This document shows positions 43,992-56,001 of a stretch of DNA of 64,000 nt, one piece after another (within the stretch, counting starts at the first letter, position 1; each line of letters begins with the position of its first letter). The position numbers were made by a program, and so were the translations under genes. Location of the stretch: the NCBI GenBank assembly GCA_965246885.1, contig OZ251992.1, positions 2,400,001 through 2,464,000 of the forward strand, given 5' to 3'. The notes below the pieces were generated by a model. It searched no databases and had not been told where the DNA came from. It saw only the letters and a list, made by a program, of their open reading frames with translations. Source of the DNA: Abditibacterium sp. GTDB lineage: Bacteria; Armatimonadota; Abditibacteriia; Abditibacteriales; Abditibacteriaceae.

Positions 43992-44003
43992 AAGGGGGCA
44001 TGG

Positions 44004-45356
44004 CTACTCCTCGCGCGGCGGCGAGCCGCGAAAGGCGTCCTTTTGCGCGACTGCCGGAAGCGAAACGGCCCGCCCTTCGCGCGCCGAGCGGTAAATGGCT
44101 TCCATGATGCGGTGGTCTTGCAAGCCTTCTTCGCCGGGGGTGTAAGGGCGCTTGCCCTCAATGACGCACTCGGCCATGTGATCCATTTCGAGCGCGAACT
44201 GGTTCTTTTCTTCCATGCTGACTTCCTCGCGGCGCTCGATGCGCCCCTGCGCGAAGGAGGTCTGCATCTTGAGGCCAGAGTAGGAAAACGCCGGGTCAAG
44301 GCCGAAGGTGCCGCGCTCCTGTAACACGCGGTAGCGGCGTGTTTCGTGGTGGCCGTAGCCAGTCACGCAGTTCGCTTGCACGCCCGATGGAAAGCGCATT
44401 TGCCACAAACAGTTCTCCTCGACTTCGCGGAAGCGCGGGTCGCCGGGCGTAGAATACGTCGAGGCCATCACTTCCACCGGCTCTTCGCCGAGCAGAAAGC
44501 GCGAGGTGTTGAGGCAATACAAGCCGACATCGGGGAGCGAGCCGCCGCCCGCGAGCGCGCGCTTTTGGCGCCACTGGTTCGGGTCGCCTTGGTTTTGGCC
44601 ATTGACGGCTTCGATAATCTTGGTCTGGCCGAACGCCGCTTCGCGCACCATGCGTTGCGCCAAGCGGTTGTGCGGCTCGTATTGGATGCGGTAAGCGATC
44701 ATCAGCAGCCGATTGGCGGCGGCGCTCGCGGCGACCATGCGCGCCGCCGACTCGGAACTGACCGACATCGGCTTTTCGCACAGGACGTGCTTTCCGGCGC
44801 GCGTGGCGCGCACGGTGTATTCCTCGTGCAGAGCATTGGGAAGCACGACATACACCACGTCCACCGTCGGGTCGTCGCGCAAGCGGTCGAAGCCCGCGTA
44901 GGAGTAGACGTGATTGGCGCCAATTCCATACTCTGCCGCAAGGGTACGGGCTTTGTCCGGCTTGCCCGACACCAGCGCGGCGAGCTTCGCCTTTTTGCAG
45001 TTGCCGAAAGCGGGCAGGATTTGGCGAATCGAAAGCTCGCCCAACCCGACGACGGCGAAGCCGACGCGTTGCGCGGGCGGAAGCGGTTGCGGCGGCGGGC
45101 CGGATTGCCGCTCGGTCGGCGCGTTTTGATTGGGCACGCGGAGGGGCGGCTGGGGCTGGGCCGGTTGGCGCGCGGGGTTGCCCGACGCGGGTGCAGGCAA
45201 GCGCGGTTGGGCATTGGCGAGGGAGGACAGCCCCGTCGCGGTGGTCGCGGCAGCAGCCGCAGCGATGAACGCGCGGCGGGAAGTCTTAGCGTCGTTGGGC
45301 GCGGGGGCGGAGGGAACATCCGCGTCGGGGCTGGAGTCGAAATGCTGGTCTTGCAT
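44004..45356 (-). CDS. Gfo/Idh/MocA oxidoreductase (glucose-fructose oxidoreductase-like), Tat signal
   Basis: SRRAFIAAAAA, GFAVVGLG, GKHVLCEKPM, GGGSLPDVGLYCLN. Confidence 0.9.
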   Translation of the reverse strand: MQDQHFDSSPDADVPSAPAPNDAKTSRRAFIAAAAAATTATGLSSLANAQPRLPAPASGNPARQPAQPQPPLRVPNQNAPTERQSGPPPQPLPPAQRVGFAVVGLGELSIRQILPAFGNCKKAKLAALVSGKPDKARTLAAEYGIGANHVYSYAGFDRLRDDPTVDVVYVVLPNALHEEYTVRATRAGKHVLCEKPMSVSSESAARMVAASAAANRLLMIAYRIQYEPHNRLAQRMVREAAFGQTKIIEAVNGQNQGDPNQWRQKRALAGGGSLPDVGLYCLNTSRFLLGEEPVEVMASTYSTPGDPRFREVEENCLWQMRFPSGVQANCVTGYGHHETRRYRVLQERGTFGLDPAFSYSGLKMQTSFAQGRIERREEVSMEEKNQFALEMDHMAECVIEGKRPYTPGEEGLQDHRIMEAIYRSAREGRAVSLPAVAQKDAFRGSPPREE

Positions 45357-45425
45357 AATCCCCGCGCGCCTTCGCAAGGGCCGCGCCAGAAACCCGCCCC
45401 GCCCGTACGGGTCATACAACTTCCA

Positions 45426-46169
45426 ATGAAATTCCACCGCTTCCTCGCACCCGCCGCCTTGCTTCTCGCCCTCGGAGGGGCGCGCAGTGCATGCGCACAA
45501 ATCGCCGCGCCGTATCCCCGCGTCTTCGCCGCGCCGTATCCCCGCGTCTTCGCCGGGGAGCGTGGCCAAACCCTGCTCAAAGTCGTGCCGGACAAGCACT
45601 CCATGACCGGCGCTACCGCCACGCTCACCCGCTTCAACACCGACGGCACGGAAGAGGTCTTATGGAACAAACCGCTCGTCAACCTCCCCGGCGGCGTGTT
45701 ACTATCCAACGACTACAACCCCTACCTCGTCACCACCGACTCGTGGGGCAACGCGGGCGGCGCACACGCGCTCGTCATTTACAACCCCAAAGGAGAAGTC
45801 GTCGCCGACCTCAAGGGCGACGACTTCCTGCCGCCCGTCGTCAAGCCGCCGCACAAGGCGGGCGAACCCTTCACCATCGTCATGGACGGCGGCGGGCGCC
45901 AATGGACGAACAACGCCGAACTTTCCTTCGAGCCGCGCTTCGATCCCACCACGCTCGTTGTGCAACTGTTCCATGGGAAACCAATACCCGTCGCCTTGCA
46001 AAACGGAAACACCAAGTCAGTGGGCGACTTGCGTCAGCGCGGCAACCAGATTCGCGTTGACATCAAAACGGGCGCCATCACACAGGTAACTCCAGAGCAA
46101 CTCGACGAAGAAGAAATGACGTCGCACATAACGCACTGGTTTTCGGTAGTGCCTGTTGGTTTCAAGTGA
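45426..46169 (+). CDS. Hypothetical exported protein
   Basis: Signal peptide MKFHRFLAPAALLLAL; contains a 24-bp duplication. Confidence 0.7.
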   Translation: MKFHRFLAPAALLLALGGARSACAQIAAPYPRVFAAPYPRVFAGERGQTLLKVVPDKHSMTGATATLTRFNTDGTEEVLWNKPLVNLPGGVLLSNDYNPYLVTTDSWGNAGGAHALVIYNPKGEVVADLKGDDFLPPVVKPPHKAGEPFTIVMDGGGRQWTNNAELSFEPRFDPTTLVVQLFHGKPIPVALQNGNTKSVGDLRQRGNQIRVDIKTGAITQVTPEQLDEEEMTSHITHWFSVVPVGFK

Positions 46170-46229
46170 TAAAAAGGCGGGGCCAGACGCAATCCACCTG
46201 CGTCTTTGGCGGGCGCGTTTCTTACCCTT

Positions 46230-46811
46230 ATGGCTTTCACTCTCGAACTCGGCGACATGGCGCCCGACTTTGCCTTGCCCGCGACGGACGGCAAGAGCTA
46301 TTCCCTCGCCGATTTCGCCGCCGCGCCCGTGTTGGTTGTGGCATTCACCTGCAACCACTGCCCTTACGTCGTCAACTCCGAGGAGCGCATCCTCGCCTTT
46401 GACCGCGACTACGCCCCGCGCGGCGTCCGGTTGGTGTGCATCAACTCCAACGCCGAGACGACCTACGCCGATGACGATTTTCCGCACATGGTTGAGCGCG
46501 CGCGCGAACGCGGCTTTGCGTTTCCGTATCTGCGCGACGAATCGCAGGAGGTCGCCCTCGCGTATGGCGCGCTCCGCACGCCGCATTATTTCGTCTTCGA
46601 CGCGGAGCGGAAGCTGCGCTATACCGGCAGGATGGACGATCGCCCGCGTCACCCCGGCGAAGAAACCACGCGCGAACTGCGCGATGCTGTCGAGGACTTG
46701 CTCCAAGGGCGCGAGGTCGCGGTTCCGCTCACCAACCCCATCGGCTGCAACGTGAAATGGCGCGGCCAAGACAAGCACTGGATGCCTGCGCTCGCGTGCG
46801 ACTTGGTCTGA
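46230..46811 (+). CDS. Thioredoxin/peroxiredoxin-like (AhpC/TSA-like) protein
   Basis: [31 protein letters not shown]. Confidence 0.9.
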
Positions 46812-46858
46812 AGCCGCCCCGACTGTGACAATTTGAGGGATAACCTCCCTCCGTGTTT

Positions 46859-46884
46859 GGAACTTTGCCAGCGTGCCTTGCGTT
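46859..46884 (+). promoter_or_regulatory. Candidate ECF-type promoter
   Basis: GGAAC-N17-CGTT upstream of the sigma-70 paralog. Confidence 0.45.
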
Positions 46885-47006
46885 AGTTGTTAGGCGCGGC
46901 GCTAAGACTACCCAAAAACGAGCACGAGTGTTTCTAATACTTTACCCTCCCTTCCCCCGACCTATATGAAATTGCGCGCCCGCCAAGGAATGACACTCTG
47001 AAAAAA

Positions 47007-47894
47007 ATGAGCAAACAATACCCGACCGGACAGACCTCTCGTGGTGTGGAAGCGACCTCTTCCGCCCTACCCGACGCTGTGGCGGCTTGGGTGAAGATGG
47101 CCCAGAAAACGCCGCTTCTCACCGCCGCCGAAGAAAAAGAATTGGGCCGCCGCATCGCTAAAGGAGACGAACCCGCCTACAAACGCATGGTCGAGGCCAA
47201 CCTGCGCCTCGTCATCACGATGGCGCTCAAGCAACTGCACCAAGGGCACAATCACTCGCTCACTCTGGCCGACCTCATCCAAGAAGGGAACTTTGGCCTG
47301 ATGCGCGCCGCCCGCAAGTTCGATCCCGCGCTGGGCTACCGCTTTTCGACGTACGCTTCGTTCTGGATTCGCCAAGCCATGAGCCGCGCCATCGCCGACC
47401 AAGCGAAGATGGTGCGCGTCCCCGCGCATATCGCGGAACTGACCAAGACCGCTTATCGTACCATCGCCACGCTTGTGCAATCGTTGGGGCGCCAACCGAC
47501 CGTCGAAGAACTCGCCGAGAAGCTGCAAGTCACCAAAGAAACCGCCGAACTGGTTCTCAAGAACATGGCGGAAACCTTCTCGCTCGACGACGAGATCGGC
47601 GACAGTGGCGACGGCGAGGATTTCGTGGATATGCTGCGCGACGTGGATGCCATTGTCCCCGAAGAAGCCGCCGAAACCGCCATCCTGCGCGAGGAAGTGC
47701 GCCGCGCCTTGGACGAACTGACCGAGCGGGAGCGCGAAGTCGTCAACATGCGCTACGGACTTTCTGGCGGACGCGCGCACACTCTGCAAGAACTGGGCGC
47801 CTACTTCAAAGTTTCGCGCGAGCGCGTGCGCCAAATCGAAGGGCAGGCGCTGCGCAAGCTGCGCAAGGGCGGCCTGAGCGAAGCGGTCAACTAA
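47007..47894 (+). CDS. Sigma-70 family factor (RpoD/SigA-like, no region 1.1)
   Basis: PLLTAAEE, ANLRLV, DLIQEGNFGL, RFSTYASFWIRQA, SRERVRQIE. Confidence 0.92.
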   Translation: MSKQYPTGQTSRGVEATSSALPDAVAAWVKMAQKTPLLTAAEEKELGRRIAKGDEPAYKRMVEANLRLVITMALKQLHQGHNHSLTLADLIQEGNFGLMRAARKFDPALGYRFSTYASFWIRQAMSRAIADQAKMVRVPAHIAELTKTAYRTIATLVQSLGRQPTVEELAEKLQVTKETAELVLKNMAETFSLDDEIGDSGDGEDFVDMLRDVDAIVPEEAAETAILREEVRRALDELTEREREVVNMRYGLSGGRAHTLQELGAYFKVSRERVRQIEGQALRKLRKGGLSEAVN

Positions 47895-48003
47895 ACAACT
47901 CCATAAACCACCCATCGGCCCGCGAACTCGATTCGCGGGCTTTTCGTTTGGAAAGAGCCATGCCTCAAGAGCCGGAAACTGATTTGCAGAAGCAGTGAGT
48001 TCT

Positions 48004-48903
48004 ATGGGAATCCAACTCAAACCCTTAAACGAACAGGTCGTTGTGCTCACGGGCGCAACCAGCGGCATTGGACTGGCAACGGCGCACTCGCTCGCCAAAG
48101 CCGGAGCCAAGGTAGTGCTCGTGGCGCGCAACGCGCAGGCGCTACAAAAGGTCGCCGACGAGATTAGCGCCAATGGCGGACAAGTCGCCTACGTCGCCGC
48201 CGATGTCGCCGACAAAAGCGCGCTCGCGGGCGCGGCGCAAACGGCCTTAGATACTTTCGGGCGCATTGACACGTGGATTAACGACGCGGGTCTGGGCATG
48301 ATTGGGCGCTTGCAAGACGGCTCCGACGAAGACCACCGCCGCTTGTTCGAGACGAACTTCTGGGGTCTTGTTTACGGCTCTCTCATCGCCTTGCCACATT
48401 TAAAACACAACGGCGGCGCCCTCATCAACGTGGGCAGCGAAGTCTCCGAAGCCGTCATCCCCCTCCAAGGAATGTATGCGACCACCAAACACGCCGTCAA
48501 GGGCTTCACCGACGCCCTGCGCGTGGAGTTACAAGTCGAGGAAGCGCCCGTCTCCGTCACGCTGATTCAGCCCACTGCCGTTGACACGCCCTTCCCGCAG
48601 CACGCGCGCAACATCACCGACCAAGAGCCAAAGCTCCCCGACCCGATGATCGAGGCCCAGCAGGTCGCCGATGCCATCTTGCACGCTTGCGCCAACCCCG
48701 ACCGCGACGTGAAAGTGGGCGCCATGTCGGTGATGAACACCTTTATGCACAACTTCCTGCCCAAGGTGGGCGAGAAAATGGCGACTGCCCAACAAGACCG
48801 CCAGCACTACGACGAGCCGCCCCGCGACCCTCAAGGTTCCCTCTACTCTCCCGCCGCCGACGGCGACGGGCAGGTAAAGGGGTCGGGCGGTGTGCAAAAA
48901 TAA
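48004..48903 (+). CDS. Short-chain dehydrogenase/reductase
   Basis: TGATSGIG, IDTWINDAG, YATTKHA. Confidence 0.92.
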   Translation: MGIQLKPLNEQVVVLTGATSGIGLATAHSLAKAGAKVVLVARNAQALQKVADEISANGGQVAYVAADVADKSALAGAAQTALDTFGRIDTWINDAGLGMIGRLQDGSDEDHRRLFETNFWGLVYGSLIALPHLKHNGGALINVGSEVSEAVIPLQGMYATTKHAVKGFTDALRVELQVEEAPVSVTLIQPTAVDTPFPQHARNITDQEPKLPDPMIEAQQVADAILHACANPDRDVKVGAMSVMNTFMHNFLPKVGEKMATAQQDRQHYDEPPRDPQGSLYSPAADGDGQVKGSGGVQK

Positions 48904-49239
48904 AGGCTCGTTGGGGCACAACCATTCGAGGCGGCGCCAAACGAAGAAACAGCAATGAAGAAGTGCCCGTTGTGTGGTTACGTGATGGAAGCCTTTGACC
49001 GCGAGTGTTTGCGCTGCAAAGGTAGGGGCGTCGCAGTTCCGGCACAGTCCACCCCTGCTCCGGGGGCGCCCACCCCCGCCCCACGCCACTCAACAGACTC
49101 ATTTCATCCGCCGCTCCCGCGCCACCACTTGGCCCCACTGGGGCGCCGCCTTTTTTTCTGGCCGCCCTCGAAAACACCTTTGGCAAGCCCAAACTGTCCC
49201 GCTTTTACGCCGATGCCGACGTGCTGCTGTTCATTTTCT

Positions 49240-49420
49240 CTGGGCCATATCACGCAGGAGTCAACTACCCCTTAGCAAGCTAAGGGGCTTGTCCCTAATC
49301 CATCAGGATTGAGACATTAGGGCCGTTGACACGGCCCCGCTACCCTCAGATTTACCGAGAGTAGCAAGGTATTTGAAACCTATATTTCTGCTGGCGTTTA
49401 GGTCAGCGTTCAATTCAAAG
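49240..49420 (-). ncRNA. Predicted TnpB omega/reRNA (5' boundary approximate)
   Basis: Inferred from the known architecture: scaffold spans tnpB 3' end and right end, guide comes from flanking DNA. Confidence 0.45.
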
Positions 49421-50555
49421 TGACATTCACGGCAATGGAAAACAGATTGAGACTTGCGATTACCCCGATGCTTGTAGCCACAGTGCGAGCAGGTTTGGCT
49501 AGTGTGGCGGGGGTCTACCCCGACCACGCGGCACGCTTTCTCCGCGCCCTTGTATTCCAGCATCGCACGCAAACGAGCAAAGCTCCATTGGTGCATCTGC
49601 CGTTTCAAGGAAGTGCCCTTGCGGGCCTTCGTCCGTTGTCGAATCTCCGTCAAGTTCTCAACCACTATCACACTGCCAAAACCCACACTTTGAACGATAC
49701 GACGCGACACCACATGGTCACAGTCAGAGCGAAAACGGGTCAGGCGACGGCGAAGCTGTTTCAAGTGACGCTTGGCGCTTTTTGTTCCTTTGCTCTGCAA
49801 GCTGCGCTTGAGCTTGAAGTATCGGCGTTCAATGTTCTTCCAACGTTTCTCGCCGAAGAACCGATTATTGGACGCGACGGCGGGCCGCGTGATACCAAAG
49901 TCAACGCCCACAACTTCCCCGCCACTCGCGGCTTCCGGTTCTTCGAGCGTGACTACCAAATGCAAAAACCACTTTCCCTTGCGATACACAAGGTCGGCGC
50001 TGTCAAAGCCCGTCGACTTGTCCATCGCTTCACGCGCATGGTCATACAGGCCAAACGCGACCTTCTGGCGCCCGTCAACCGTCGCCAGAGACACGATACC
50101 ATCCGCGCAAATCACGCGGTAGCTTCTGGCATCGTAGCGAATCGGGCAACTCTTGGACTGCGGGCCAGACACCTTTTTGCCCTTTTTCGCAAGCGCCATT
50201 GCCGAGACTACCGCCTCGGTTGCCTTGACGCGAGACGCGCAAACCAACTGCGAAGGCAGAAGAGGGAAACGCTCTCGAAGCGCGGCATAGGTGTCTTTAT
50301 GCAATTGCACGCCGTTCTTGATTTGCTCCTCCCAACCGTGAGACGCCACCGCGTTGAAGCACTCCGTGTGCTGGCGAAGTGTTTCGCCAAGCAAAGCAGA
50401 TTGCTCTTTCGTCGGTCTCAACTCCAAGCGGATAGTGCGTTGCATTTCTCATATGCCAGACGTTTTGGTGAATCGCTACGTTCCAAAGTCGTCGTCCCGA
50501 CGACACTTTTTATCCTCCCCTCAGACAAGCTGAGAGGTTTCCAAAAAGTATTTTT
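49260..50555 (-). mobile_element. Non-autonomous IS200/IS605-family (IS1341-like) element
   Basis: Subterminal hairpins at both ends (CCTCTCAG..CTGAGGGG; CCCCTTAGC-TT-GCTAAGGGG); right end ..GTTGAC; TCAT target 5' of left end; tnpB only, no tnpA. Confidence 0.88.
49303..50445 (-). CDS. tnpB: RNA-guided endonuclease TnpB
   Basis: RuvC motifs VVGVDFG, IVVENL, NADLNAS; zinc finger CSHC..CREC; DPRHTSQ. Confidence 0.95.
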   Translation of the reverse strand: MQRTIRLELRPTKEQSALLGETLRQHTECFNAVASHGWEEQIKNGVQLHKDTYAALRERFPLLPSQLVCASRVKATEAVVSAMALAKKGKKVSGPQSKSCPIRYDARSYRVICADGIVSLATVDGRQKVAFGLYDHAREAMDKSTGFDSADLVYRKGKWFLHLVVTLEEPEAASGGEVVGVDFGITRPAVASNNRFFGEKRWKNIERRYFKLKRSLQSKGTKSAKRHLKQLRRRLTRFRSDCDHVVSRRIVQSVGFGSVIVVENLTEIRQRTKARKGTSLKRQMHQWSFARLRAMLEYKGAEKACRVVGVDPRHTSQTCSHCGYKHRGNRKSQSVFHCRECHFELNADLNASRNIGFKYLATLGKSEGSGAVSTALMSQS

Positions 50556-51068
50556 ATGAAACATGGCATTAAGCGCAAACGGGGAGAAGCATCGGGCGTA
50601 GGCTCACGCACAGTTCAAGCGATGGGGCGCGGGGCCATTGCTGGCGCGCGAGTGGGCGGCTTGGTGGGCATGTCCGTTGGCGGCGGCCTTGCCTTAATCG
50701 GGGGAGCGCTTGTGGCGGCGGACTATTTGCGTGCCCAAAAGGAGCGCGACAAATGCGAGAATGTCTTGGACAATCCGACGCTGGCCTACCTGCGCCACGA
50801 AGCCCAAAACGGGAAGCACTGCTCTCGCATCGAACGCGGCAACACGAGAGGGGTGAAACTGCGTCCGTCGTCAAAGGGTTTCTTCTCGAACGACGGAGCC
50901 GACATCGCCGGATATTTGCAGTTCGCGCACGCCCCACAGGGCAAGTGGAAACTAAAACTCATCACCTTGCCCGACGCTTACGATGCCCTTATGGATTTCC
51001 GCCGCGTCGTGGGCGCCGACCAAGTGGAGTCGCAGTTTCCGTTCTGACGGCGCGGCGGGGGAGAGGCT

Positions 51069-51503
51069 TTACAACTTGATGTCCACGATGGCGCTGACGC
51101 CCACACCGGGGACGCGGCGGATGTTGCTCAAACTGTTGGAATCAATGGGAATCAGGACGCGCGCTTGAATGGTGGAAAGCGCGCGCACTTGAGTTTGGAA
51201 CTGCGCGACGGCTTTGACTTTGTCCACTTGCTCGCGCGGGCCGGAAACTTGGACGATGCCAACGGCGCCGCGTGACCCCGCCGAAATAACGGCCACGACT
51301 TTGGTAATGGTGTTGGGGTCGTCCACTTTGTTTTGTCCGGTGATGCGGTTAAGCGCCGAGTTGATCTGGCCGCCGAACTGCTTGACGATGAGCGCCGCGC
51401 CTCCGATTTTGAGTAGCGCGCCGAGTTGGGCGCTGGCCGCGCCAGCGCCAAAAAGAAGTCCGCCCGCCAAAGCGAGGGCGGTTTTAGAAGTTTGAAGTTT
51501 CAT
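51069..51503 (-). CDS. Hypothetical exported protein
   Basis: Signal peptide ..AGAASA; VKQFGGQINSALN, TKVVAVISAG, GIVQVSGP, RRVPGVGVSAIVDIKL. Confidence 0.8.
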   Translation of the reverse strand: MKLQTSKTALALAGGLLFGAGAASAQLGALLKIGGAALIVKQFGGQINSALNRITGQNKVDDPNTITKVVAVISAGSRGAVGIVQVSGPREQVDKVKAVAQFQTQVRALSTIQARVLIPIDSNSLSNIRRVPGVGVSAIVDIKL

Positions 51504-51599
51504 ACCAGTAGTTTGGCGTTCAAAGTCGGTGCCGGGTTCATTTTCGTCTTTTTTGCGGGCACACAGATAATTCTTCGCGCGACCCACATGAGAAATGCC

Positions 51600-51737
51600 A
51601 AGAATTAACTGCGCCATCGGAAGAAGTAGGCGCGCCACCGAAAAAATTAGGTGCGCCGATGGAAGAGTTAGCTAACTGACGCAAGAATTAAGCGCGCCAT
51701 CGGAAAAGCTAACTGCGCCATCGGAAGAATTAGGCCC
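51600..51737. repeat. Degenerate 21-bp tandem repeat, about 6.5 units
   Basis: Consensus near AAGAATTA(A/G)(C/G)(T/C)GCGCCATCGG; units at 51600, 51621, 51642, 51663 (20 bp), 51683, 51704, 51725. Confidence 0.88.
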
Positions 51738-51742
51738 TTTTG

Positions 51743-54283
51743 TCAGCCATTGGACAATGTGGCGAACAGAAGTAAGCCAAGCAGTAGCGCCGAGGCGACG
51801 GCGCCAAAGACAACGCGGCCCGCCGCGCGGCCCGTTGCGCTCAGCGCGCGCCCCACGCCCCACGCCAAGCCGAGCGCGGCGCCCAGCATCGCCCACACGA
51901 GTGGCGCGTTCCCCAAAGCGAGCGCGCCGAACTTGCCGCCGAGGGCACGCGCGACGGGATACAAGAGCCAATCGCCCGCGCTCCAGAGCGTCCAATGAAG
52001 CAGTTCGGTCGCCAAGTAGCCCCCGAAGGCGCCCAGAGCCAGACCGACCATCGGCAAGGTTTGCAGCATGGAATCATCGGAGCCTTTGAGCAATCCGGCG
52101 CGCTCGCGGGAGGGAATCTTGCGCTCGCGGCGCGCGAGCAGGAGGCCGCCGTAACCGCCAAAGCCACTACCGACCAGAAGCGGGCCAAGACCGCGAAAAT
52201 CCAGCCCGGCCAAGGTGCGCCCGCCGTTCTCCCACAGCCATTTGGTGGTGTATGCGGGGTTAACGAGACCATAAAAAGCGCGCACCCCCGCGCCAATGAG
52301 CGCGCCGTAAAGAAGGGATAGCAAGACCAGTTCGGCCAATTGGCGCGGCGGCAAGACGATGCGGTAGCGCACCGGAACGCGCAAGCGTCCGCCGTTGGTG
52401 TCTATTTGCAGTAGCCCTTCGTAGAAGCGCGCGACGGCGGCGGAACTGGAAGCGTCCACGCTCAGGGTGATGGGTTCGCTGCCCTCGAAGCGTTCAGGCG
52501 CGGTCAAGATGCCCAAACTCGGCCCAACATACACGGCGCCGCGCGGCGTGCCACCGGACGCGCGCTTGGGTTGCACGCGCACCGTCGCTTCGGCGCGGCG
52601 CCCGACGAGAACGGAGCCGAAATCCACTTCGGCGGGGGCGGCTTCGAGTTCAAGGGGCACGACCGAGTACGAGACGGGCAAGCGATGCGCGCCCGCGTCG
52701 GTCTCGAACAAGACAAAGCCAGCATAGGCCCCGACCGCGACGCGCGCGGTGTCGAGTTCGAGCGCGAGTTCCACATCGTTGCCCGCCCAACTGGGGGGCA
52801 CGACCAAACCGGGCAGAGACGCTTCCGCTTCGCCTATCCCGCCCGCCAGAATATCTTTGACCGCGAAGGCGAGCGCGCTTTGACCGGGGCGGGCTTTGGG
52901 GGGAACGCTGATAATCCCCCACAACAGCCCCGGCCCGACGTTACGGAGGCGCACGTCCAACTTCGCTTTGGCGCCGGAATCGAGAGCGCCGAAGTTGAGG
53001 GCGTCGGGTTCGATGTCGAGGCGCGGCAAAACGTTGGTGGTGCCGGTCGGATAAAGCGCGCGGCGCAGCAGTTCGAGGGCGCGGTCGGGTTGCTCGGCGT
53101 GCGACTTGACCAGCCCCATCGCCACGCGCGCGGGGTTGGCGAAGCCGTTTTGCAACAGCCATGACCCCAAGCTGCCGTTGAAGAGATACGTCTTTGATTC
53201 GTCGCCGTGCGTGTCGAAAAGCAGCGCCAGTTCGCTCGCGGTGCGCGCTTTCGCGCCGTCGGCGAAGGTGAAGGCAGGGGCGCCGGTCGCGCCCATGTCG
53301 GGCGCGAGGATGGCGTGGAGGTCGGCGAGGAGTTCGTCTATCGTCTGAAAGCGCGCCGCGAGGTCGCTTTGCGTGGCCTTGGCAATCAACAGTTCCGTTT
53401 CGGGCGAAACGAGCGAATTGAAAAAGCGCGGCGAGTGCGCGCGCAGTTCGCGGAGTTGCTCGGCGTCCTGCGGGTCGCGGCCACTGAGCAGGCGGTAAAG
53501 AGTCATGCCGAGCGCGTAGATGTCGGAGCGCTTTTCGGGGTGGTCGCGCTCTTGCGGGGTGTCGGGCGCATATCCCAGAGTTCCGAAACGCGAAGTGCCA
53601 CTGATGGCGACCGTGCCGTAGCCCCCCGCTTCGCCGACTTTTTTGGTCAACCCGAAGTCGAGAAGCACGGCGTTTTCGTCGTCACCCCGGATTTTGATGT
53701 TGTCGGGCTTGATGTCGCGGTGGATGGTGCCGACACGGTGCAACGTGCGGACGGCGGACGCGATTTGCCCGATCCACGTCAGGGCGCGCTTTTCCTCTAA
53801 CGGCACGCCGCCATTGTGGGCCGCGACTGCTTCCAAAGTCGGGCCGTCCACGAAGTCCATCATGAGGTAGTAGCGCGCCTCGACCAGAAGCAACGCCGCG
53901 CCATGTTCGGGACAAAAGCGCGCGCCCTCGCCCCAGTCCAAACCACAGACGGGACAGACGTGCCACGCGCCGGTTTCTTGGTCGAAGTAAGCGGCGGGGA
54001 TGTTCGGGTGGCGGATGGTAGCGAGGTTCAGCGCCTCGCGGCGGAACAATTCAAGTGCGCTTTGTCGTTCGTCTCCCGCCGTATCAGGGCGCGACAGGAC
54101 GTGCATTTCCTTGGCGGCGAGCGTATTGCCGACGGCGGAGTCGAAGACGCGGTATACACTCCCGAAGTTGCCGCCGCCGAGTGCGTCCAGCACATCGTAG
54201 CGGTCTTTGATGCGGTCGCCGACGCGATGCTTGAGGGGAGCAATTGGGTTTAGCGCGGTGCCGGACGGCGGGGGAATCGTCAC
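51743..54283 (-). CDS. Hanks-type Ser/Thr kinase with zinc-ribbon insert, Ig-like domains and C-terminal TMs
   Basis: LGGGNFGSVY, AAKE, HRDIKPDN, DFG, GTLGYAP, SDIYALG; start approximate. Confidence 0.9.
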   Translation of the reverse strand: MTIPPPSGTALNPIAPLKHRVGDRIKDRYDVLDALGGGNFGSVYRVFDSAVGNTLAAKEMHVLSRPDTAGDERQSALELFRREALNLATIRHPNIPAAYFDQETGAWHVCPVCGLDWGEGARFCPEHGAALLLVEARYYLMMDFVDGPTLEAVAAHNGGVPLEEKRALTWIGQIASAVRTLHRVGTIHRDIKPDNIKIRGDDENAVLLDFGLTKKVGEAGGYGTVAISGTSRFGTLGYAPDTPQERDHPEKRSDIYALGMTLYRLLSGRDPQDAEQLRELRAHSPRFFNSLVSPETELLIAKATQSDLAARFQTIDELLADLHAILAPDMGATGAPAFTFADGAKARTASELALLFDTHGDESKTYLFNGSLGSWLLQNGFANPARVAMGLVKSHAEQPDRALELLRRALYPTGTTNVLPRLDIEPDALNFGALDSGAKAKLDVRLRNVGPGLLWGIISVPPKARPGQSALAFAVKDILAGGIGEAEASLPGLVVPPSWAGNDVELALELDTARVAVGAYAGFVLFETDAGAHRLPVSYSVVPLELEAAPAEVDFGSVLVGRRAEATVRVQPKRASGGTPRGAVYVGPSLGILTAPERFEGSEPITLSVDASSSAAVARFYEGLLQIDTNGGRLRVPVRYRIVLPPRQLAELVLLSLLYGALIGAGVRAFYGLVNPAYTTKWLWENGGRTLAGLDFRGLGPLLVGSGFGGYGGLLLARRERKIPSRERAGLLKGSDDSMLQTLPMVGLALGAFGGYLATELLHWTLWSAGDWLLYPVARALGGKFGALALGNAPLVWAMLGAALGLAWGVGRALSATGRAAGRVVFGAVASALLLGLLLFATLSNG

Positions 54284-54316
54284 AAGAGGGAGTTTAGAAT
54301 CCCAAGGAAGCCGACT

Positions 54317-54649
54317 TTGTCCGACCAACCCCAGTTCTTGCCCGCCGAACCCGCTTCCGCGCCTGCCGAAGACGCGGCCCCAGCGCCGCGCCCACCCGCC
54401 CCGCCGCTCCCGTCCTCGCCGTTGGAGCGCGCCCAGTTGGAATCAGAGGGCAAACTTCCGACACAAACCGCCGAAGACGACCGCACGACGATGGTGGCGT
54501 TCGGCCTCTTGTTCGTGGTGCCACTGCTGATTATCATCCTGTCGCTCGTGTTCCTGCTCCCATTCATCAACGCGCAAATCAACCGCGACCAAAACCCCGG
54601 CGGCGCGGTCACGCAATCCGCTCCGAACGGACAAACGCCGACGCGGTGA
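54317..54649 (+). CDS. Small single-TM hypothetical protein
   Basis: Pro-rich N-terminus, TM VAFGLLFVVPLLIIILSLVFLL. Confidence 0.6.
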   Translation: MSDQPQFLPAEPASAPAEDAAPAPRPPAPPLPSSPLERAQLESEGKLPTQTAEDDRTTMVAFGLLFVVPLLIIILSLVFLLPFINAQINRDQNPGGAVTQSAPNGQTPTR

Positions 54650-55617
54650 GGAGTGTTGAAGCGATGCCAAAGAAAGGGGACACTTTGCCTATGACCTGCC
54701 CCCTTTGCCATTTGGTCAACTCGCCGCTCTCGCTCGATGTCTGCTCGCGTTGCGGCGCACTTTTGCGCGGTAGCGGAACTGGGGCCGCCCCTGCGGACGG
54801 AGCGCCGCGCTTGGGCGTCGCTCCGTCGCCAACTCCGCGCCCGCGTCGTCTCCTGTCGCGCCTCAACCGGCTTTCCAATCTCACGATTTGGCTGGGCGCC
54901 GCGCTGTTGGGTACAGGCACGGGCTTTTTGGTGCGGTGGGGTCAACAAGTGTTCTCCCCTGCGTCAAGTCCTTTAACTGTTGCTGCCGCGCCGATGCCAA
55001 TCCCGATGAGTCCACTCCAAGGTCAAGTCGCACCGCGCTCGTTTCCACAAGCCATACCGGAGCAATATCGAACCGGCTCACGATTGCGGCCAAAGCCGCT
55101 CGAAACCCTTCCAGAAATGCCGCCCCTTGCGGTGCTTCGCCCGGCGAAAGATGTTGATGTACCGCTACGAGATTATGCGCCCAATAAAATCTCGTTGCGG
55201 TTAAGTGAAGTGCATCCAGTTTCCCGTGCAGTGCGCTTAGAAATCACCGCACGCTACAATGAGTGGAAGCAACGTCAGACCGACGGCACAAACCAGCTTG
55301 AAAGCCTTATCGACTTCTACGCACCGGGGTCTCGTATTTTTCGGGTTCCAGACAAGGCAATATCGCGTGACGATTTGCGCCAGCTTTCCATCCGCACACG
55401 GCAGATGGGCATATTCACCTCCGCGCGTGACCAGAAGCCATTGGAGTGGGCGCAGAACGCGGCGGGCGACCGCGTGGAACTGCTCGCGTTTCATTGCTAC
55501 GGCGACGACGGCGGCAATTTGCTAAGCGGGCAACGCCTTTTGACATGGCGGAGAAGCGGTGGGAAATGGCTTATCGTCCGCGACGACTTCCCGCCGCGTT
55601 ATTTTGTCTCCAAATGA
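54646..55617 (+). CDS. Hypothetical zinc-ribbon/TM protein with NTF2-like C-terminus
   Basis: CPLC..CSRCG, one TM, C-terminal LTWRRSGGKWLIVRD. Confidence 0.6.
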   Translation: MRSVEAMPKKGDTLPMTCPLCHLVNSPLSLDVCSRCGALLRGSGTGAAPADGAPRLGVAPSPTPRPRRLLSRLNRLSNLTIWLGAALLGTGTGFLVRWGQQVFSPASSPLTVAAAPMPIPMSPLQGQVAPRSFPQAIPEQYRTGSRLRPKPLETLPEMPPLAVLRPAKDVDVPLRDYAPNKISLRLSEVHPVSRAVRLEITARYNEWKQRQTDGTNQLESLIDFYAPGSRIFRVPDKAISRDDLRQLSIRTRQMGIFTSARDQKPLEWAQNAAGDRVELLAFHCYGDDGGNLLSGQRLLTWRRSGGKWLIVRDDFPPRYFVSK

Positions 55618-55653
55618 ACAACGGCCCACACTCCAGAGAGTGTGGGCCGTTGT
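55616..55653. terminator. Hairpin between convergent genes
   Basis: AACAACGGCCCACACTC..GAGTGTGGGCCGTTGTT. Confidence 0.7.
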
Positions 55654-55668
55654 TGTAGTGCGTTGCAA

Positions 55669-55980
55669 CTACGCGGTTTGAGAAGCGACCGGAGCCGCCT
55701 CAACGGTTTCCGCCGCGACGACGGGGTAGACCGAGATTTTCTTGCCGGTGGCGCGGGCGCGGGCATAGGGTTCAAAGGTGACTTTGCCTTCGACCATAGC
55801 GAAGAGCGTGTCGTCCGAGCCGATGCCGACGTTGTTGCCGGGGTGATATTTCGTGCCGCGTTGACGGACGATGATGCAACCGGCGGTGACGAGTTCGCCG
55901 CCGAAACGCTTGATGCCTAACCGTTGGGAGTTGGAATCGCGCCCGTTGCGCGAACTGCCCATGCCTTTTTTGTGTGCCAT
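55669..55980 (-). CDS. rpmA: 50S ribosomal protein L27
   Basis: [25 protein letters not shown]. Confidence 0.98.
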
Positions 55981-56001
55981 TGTGGTGAGTCTCCTTGGGT
56001 T

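Follow-up and report, generated by a model that had tools for sequence, protein, structure and literature searches.

Within the window, that is the whole stretch of 64,000 nucleotides of an Abditibacterium sp. contig to which all positions below refer, the minus strand carries a single tnpB gene lying between two hairpin-bearing ends, and the plus strand on either side carries what appear to be the two parts of one host gene. The features assigned to this locus, each with the evidence on which it rests, are the following.

48955..49259, plus strand: host-gene 5' part, with a zinc-ribbon-like start and a Pro-rich linker (match to the homolog P0122, codon score)
49240..49259, minus strand: predicted guide from the right flank (placed from the boundary; the conservation among relatives stops at 49260)
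49260..49264, minus strand: right cleavage motif TTGAC, the terminal bases of the element (relatives' alignments)
49260..49390, minus strand: predicted scaffold of an omegaRNA, which overlaps tnpB at its 3' end (fold and alignments; 5' limit approximate)
49260..50555, minus strand: whole tnpB-only IS200/IS605-type element, 1296 nt (relatives' alignment, host-gene register, pairing rule)
49268..49287, minus strand: right subterminal hairpin (DNA fold, covariation alignment)
49288..49291, minus strand: right guide tetramer CAAG (sequence, relatives' right-end alignment)
49303..50445, minus strand: tnpB, 380 aa, with RuvC residues D182/E263/D348, zinc finger C319/C322/C338/C341 and an NADxN motif
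49325..49329, minus strand: predicted 5' strand of a pseudoknot, pairing with 49261-49265
50488..50504, minus strand: second left-end hairpin (DNA fold)
50517..50537, minus strand: left subterminal hairpin, 8-bp stem and 5-nt loop (DNA fold)
50538..50541, minus strand: left guide tetramer GAAA at the hairpin foot, 14 nt from the cut (sequence, pairing rule)
50556..50560, minus strand: left cleavage site and transposon-adjacent motif TTCAT, outside the element (sequence; also precedes the related loci L008 and L030)
50556..51047, plus strand: host-gene 3' part, 163 codons (57% identical to P0122 residues 102-269)

Some observations were also made in the surroundings of the element. A short gene for an RpoD-like sigma-70 factor (47007-47894, 295 aa) lies nearby, no link to the element being seen, and an exact 24-nt tandem duplication is found within an open reading frame at 45502-45549. 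Imperfect 21-nt units fill an intergenic region at 51578-51755, sequence similar to them giving 77 blastn matches spread over 36 two-kb bins of the genome; these units may represent a REP-like family, and a REP-associated transposase (L005) is encoded in the genome. In a crude scan, large CRISPR-like arrays were noted on contig G000:C1 at about 2,530,000-2,542,000 and 3,124,000, the repeat seed occurring about 214 times.

The 380-aa protein scored above the cut-offs of the domains PF01385 and PF07282 and reached 200.6 bits with the NCBIfam guided_TnpB model NF040570 (cut-off 100), and the narrower models IS200_TnpB, IS607_TnpB and Cas12f2 stayed far below their own cut-offs. The catalytic triad and the four zinc-finger cysteines were invariant in an alignment that joined the query to 39 of the 120 listed homologs (40/40 sequences), in agreement with the intact TnpB and RuvC D/E/D residues announced in the preliminary description. 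From columns conserved at 85% or more, the query departs at three places only (S144, G300 and A304), none of them catalytic. Homologs are very numerous, at least 3083 of 8000 scored candidates reaching E <= 1e-20, the best of them 87% identical. The ratio dN/dS was about 0.11-0.14 against L008 and L030, at a dS near saturation. Two other assignments were set aside: a nuclease-dead TnpB (TldR), all RuvC catalytic residues being retained, and an IS607-type TnpB, as the score with NF038280 was 67.8 bits for a cut-off of 350, the motif is AT-rich and not G-rich, and the ends are of the IS608 type.

The predicted structure, built from the alignment (pLDDT 86), showed a TnpB/Cas12f fold with structure matches 17-22% identical. 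ISDra2 TnpB (8H1J, 8EXA) and ISFba1 TnpB (8IAZ) share the fold of this model at TM 0.56-0.62 and belong to the same size class; they are 17-20% identical and recognise the TAMs TTGAT and AGGAG, and the scaffold predicted here is shorter than theirs. The best fold match of the model was with the NADXN-clade TnpB/Cas12f group (TM 0.69, 22% identity), and the NADXN RuvC-III motif is common to 'derived' TnpB of this clade and to Cas12f such as AsCas12f and OsCas12f according to part of PMC10691335. Among solved structures, Cas12f gives the best match in both sequence and fold, and CRISPR-like arrays are present in the genome; both points would fit a Cas12f belonging to a CRISPR system, or a TnpB domesticated by the host. 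Such a reading is very improbable, since the CRISPR_Cas12f2 model gave 126.6 for a cut-off of 450, no array lies within 44000-56000 and about 80 kb separate tnpB from the nearest large array, the transposon ends are complete, a gene is broken by the element, and presence is patchy, with a close homolog in 1/26 other genomes of the family, in a different context there. Compared with the NADXN-clade TnpB and Cas12f proteins, the window TnpB is also shorter, without an adjacent CRISPR array and flanked by transposon ends.

The right end was compared among 24 distinct related tnpB loci (30-100% identity; 7 duplicate loci dropped) over the 200 nt following codon 350, the alignment being anchored on the protein alone. 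TGAC occupied a single alignment column in 21/24 loci, and column agreement went from about 0.9 down to 0.4 or less at the very next base. In the three exceptions, the contig ends early, the motif is displaced, or TGTC is read. In a tighter alignment of 19 right ends, which leaves out L030 (truncated), L010, L021 and L032 (irregular) and L052, both AAG and TGAC were invariant (19/19). A longer end or target preference, suggested by TCC after TTGAC in 3 loci, was rejected, as the remaining loci diverge already at the first base. The hairpins proposed earlier at both ends were borne out by DNA folding, with a z of -2.5 at the right end (3/200 shuffles as good) and of -3.0 to -4.0 at the left end.

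The same right-end region appears to encode the guide-RNA scaffold. The 3' RNA region folded with a z of -6.85, and a pseudoknot of 5 pairs was formed with 100% of cells paired in 19/19 rows, both-sided changes being seen at 2 pairs. Pseudoknot and right hairpin together were 96.8% paired against 31-53% in slid controls, figures that count as support and not as a probability because the structure was drawn after the sequences had been inspected and the rows are kin. In the window copy every pair of the pseudoknot and of the right hairpin is intact. These comparisons, drawn from aligned sequences, support a guide-RNA scaffold that would close in a covarying pseudoknot at the element boundary, and a pseudoknot is also described for the ISDra2 scaffold in part of PMC13639567. 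The scaffold region gave no match in Rfam. An omegaRNA would presumably be expressed from the 3' end of tnpB together with the right end.

In IS608-type elements, the guide tetramer pairs with its cleavage site by an exact rule, the first two guide bases crosswise and the fourth to the fourth. The IS608 guide/site pair AAAG/TTAC, as given in part of PMC3201880, agrees with this crosswise pairing. Left ends were scanned for hairpins in the 24 loci without use of the motif, with criteria set after the sequences had been inspected and with loci that are related and not independent. A left hairpin was detected in 8/24 loci; one locus was truncated and 15 gave none, several of these having tnpA at that place. 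The tetramer predicted by the guide was found 14-15 nt upstream in 6/8 of these left ends (5/7 when the window is left out), the probability that a specified tetramer occurs by chance with a spacer of 13-15 nt being about 1.2% per element. GAAA or GAGA goes with TCAT in the window, L030 and L053, GGGA with CCAT in L056, and GGGG with CCAC in L031 and L047, so that the guide tetramer and the upstream tetramer change together across TCAT, CCAT and CCAC. The rule missed L032 and L008; in the latter TTCAT is present and the spacer has apparently been lost. About 11 nt fewer were counted between TTCAT and the hairpin in L008 than in the window and L030, and this left end is probably damaged. The tetranucleotide pairing put forward previously was thereby upheld at both ends in the window, at the left end in 6/8 loci and, through the invariant AAG and TGAC, at all 19 right ends.

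TTCAT at the left boundary, proposed before as the insertion motif, precedes L008 and L030 as well, in flanks unrelated to those of the window. T at position -5 is visible in these three cases only, the sequence of L053 being cut there. Sequence comparison thus supports (T)TCAT as the transposon insertion motif, and by analogy the TAM of the nuclease may be the same motif. A TnpB with a TCAT or TTCAT TAM was not found in the literature searched, which lay outside most subscription papers and TAM supplements.

Further evidence on both ends came from the host gene. The open reading frame starting at 50556 had one homolog besides itself, the intact 269-aa protein P0122, in which residues 1-26 correspond to the sequence beginning at 48955, residues 39-104 to the stretch that reaches 49253, and residues 102-269 to the right part; on the plus strand, the last three bases of the TTCAT motif are a Met codon of this gene. 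The interval between H104 and K108, 3 residues in P0122, takes 1305 nt in the window, that is 1296 nt extra, and as the register of the host gene is kept only if exactly 1296 nt have been added, this supports ends at 49260 and 50555. Together with the TGAC boundary of 21/24 loci, it supports the extent of 1296 bp that had been read from the sequence. No terminal microhomology or repeat was found at either element end, and, judged at the protein level from the register against this single homolog, insertion occurred without gain or loss of target. This empty-site argument is that of one protein homolog at 57-60% identity, differing at the two residues before the junction. The codon score over the last 80 nt of the left flank points to the frame in which the right part is read.

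The preliminary description was therefore right on the anatomy of the element (ends, length, pairing and triad) and had overlooked that a gene is interrupted. That the host gene was broken by insertion of the element is supported by these alignments. A separate frameshift lies in the Pro-rich linker, at about 49035-49110, and is identical to the letter in a contig of sequencing run X1, possibly the source sample. In contigs of one study (2 runs), neither a joint spanning the element nor a loose end at its boundaries was seen, a result uninformative as to absence. No Pfam or NCBIfam family was matched by P0122, and its Atlas leads were hypothetical zinc-ribbon proteins (scores of about 0.9). 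In a search for empty-site DNA among relatives, which yielded none, the right part of the host gene, used as query, was found in 0/26 other genomes of the family, and the left part was matched there by its zinc-ribbon start only.

The element has a GC content of 54.2% against 61.4-62.5% for comparison (61.4% being that of its flanks), which, with a close homolog in only one of the 26 family genomes, fits horizontal arrival. GC skew was too irregular to place it on the leading or lagging strand. Just 110 nt separate the left cut from the tnpB start codon, and no tnpA lies inside the ends, none of the five genomic matches to PF01797 (Y1) falling in the element. Alignment with other copies had been recommended. 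By tblastn, blastn and PF07282, the genome holds one tnpB gene, and these searches together with a right-end profile gave no further copy or end-only derivative. The right-end profile, from which the window copy had been left out, matched genome-wide the window's own end alone; an end of this type is consequently absent from all of the genome's Y1 genes. The left-end profile had zero matches, missing even the window's own end, and is hence uninformative, and loose pattern searches for ends and hairpins, genome-wide and in the neighbourhood of the Y1 genes, gave chance-like matches only.

A tnpA acting in trans had likewise been called for, and a close one was not found among the five Y1 matches. 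Three of them pass the NCBIfam cut-off for IS200/IS605 transposases (58.6-68.1 bits for a cut-off of 55), one is just under it and one is of the REP-associated type. Mobility driven in trans by one of these stand-alone transposases would fit the three proteins above the cut-off and the report that one GstTnpA mobilised five element families (part of 10.1101/2023.03.14.532601); an element still mobile is improbable all the same, as the Y1 proteins are just 25-36% identical to tnpA beside related tnpB (4/6 queries matched at E <= 0.01) and both the right-end profile and the copy count return one. The genome is 92.7% complete, and a cognate tnpA could thus be unassembled. Since only one copy and no close TnpA were found, the element has most likely become stranded at its present site, and its nuclease would be without a current genomic target. 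The genome gave no match to the TAM plus 8 nt of guide, and over 16 nt the best match has 5 mismatches. In part of PMC10691335, 89% of TnpB clusters are likewise without recent copies. As an observation on a relative, the right hairpin of L009 equals the left hairpin of the window at 20/21 bases, and the L009 element adjoins a divergent tnpA apparently shortened to about 79 aa, an arrangement that hints at the type of transposase that moved the window element.

Taken together, the locus is very probably a tnpB-only (IS1341-type), non-autonomous element of the IS200/IS605 group, inserted by a Y1 TnpA from elsewhere, taking its guide from the right flank and now probably stranded. By analogy with IS608, from which the action of TnpA is taken (the ends and the exact insertion come from the comparisons above), a Y1 TnpA in trans would have inserted the element into the host gene as a single-stranded circle, placing it 3' of TCAT and leaving no target duplication. 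A transcript across the tnpB 3' end and the right end would then yield the omegaRNA, with the pseudoknot at the boundary and the right flank as guide, and TnpB guided by this RNA would cleave the site left empty by excision, (T)TCAT joined to the right flank, after which repair from the sister copy would restore the element. The last step follows the ISGst elements of Geobacillus stearothermophilus, for which part of 10.1101/2023.03.14.532601 describes a motif common to transposase and nuclease and cutting of the excision joint by the nuclease, by which the element is restored.

A rival reading keeps this anatomy and differs on activity alone. On it, the element is a recent relic whose intact-looking protein is not expressed or does not cut, and this has not far from an even chance of being true. 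Its single copy and the failure to find a close tnpA fit such a relic, as do a second lesion in the host gene, suggesting some age, and a shortened spacer before the start codon: the conserved TATG motif stands 4 nt from the tnpB start, where the two closest relatives have 7-8 nt, and this shortening may, though weakly argued, impair expression. In an E. coli screen, 25/64 TnpBs were active (part of PMC13639567). The complete open frame, the three non-catalytic departures from conserved columns and the intact pseudoknot and right-hairpin pairs speak against silence. No promoter was found by the sigma-70 scan. By eye, a -10-like hexamer was seen 6-7 nt before the tnpB start in several relatives, with no clear ribosome site (window 50446-50460 and the equivalents in L009, L013, L046, L048 and L031), which suggests a leaderless tnpB mRNA. 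Expression and nuclease activity of the window TnpB may be expected by analogy with known systems. The most far-reaching reading, rather unlikely, is that of a 380-aa TnpB that is active, has a short scaffold, recognises (T)TCAT and belongs to a branch about 20% identical to solved TnpB/Cas12f.

Compared with known systems, the stranded tnpB-only element is closest to the IS1341-type solo TnpBs, which are common and mostly without recent copies in part of PMC10691335: it shares with them a lone tnpB between hairpin ends and insertion 3' of a tetranucleotide without target duplication, and differs in sequence and insertion site only, not in kind. As in IS608 of Helicobacter pylori (part of PMC3201880), guide tetramers stand 5' of both hairpins, a second left hairpin is present and the joint is scarless, the left cut lying about 19 nt from the hairpin foot in IS608 and 18 here. 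The motifs are TTAC/TCAA in IS608 and TCAT/TGAC in the window element, which lacks tnpA, and the IS608 TnpB is of the DRDXN clade, that of the window NADXN; part of 10.1101/2023.03.14.532601 reports the former as inactive. In the same source, the ISGst elements are similarly non-autonomous, with a TAM common to transposase and nuclease and a flank-derived guide; TTCAT is there the TAM of IscB and TTTAT that of TnpB2, whereas TTCAT here adjoins a TnpB element, and about 50 copies with a cognate tnpA contrast with one copy and none found here.

The element is real but ordinary, one more solo TnpB of a very large known family, and its biological weight is small, though it is a clean example. Since the ends, motif and guide can be read and the interrupted gene provides a check, it is fit for a TnpB screen without guesswork. 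If the protein were active with a TCAT-type TAM, a modest gain in the target range of miniature editors would follow, and if (T)TCAT is truly its motif, the TCAT, CCAT and CCAC of its relatives would offer a natural series for mapping the residues that set the TAM.
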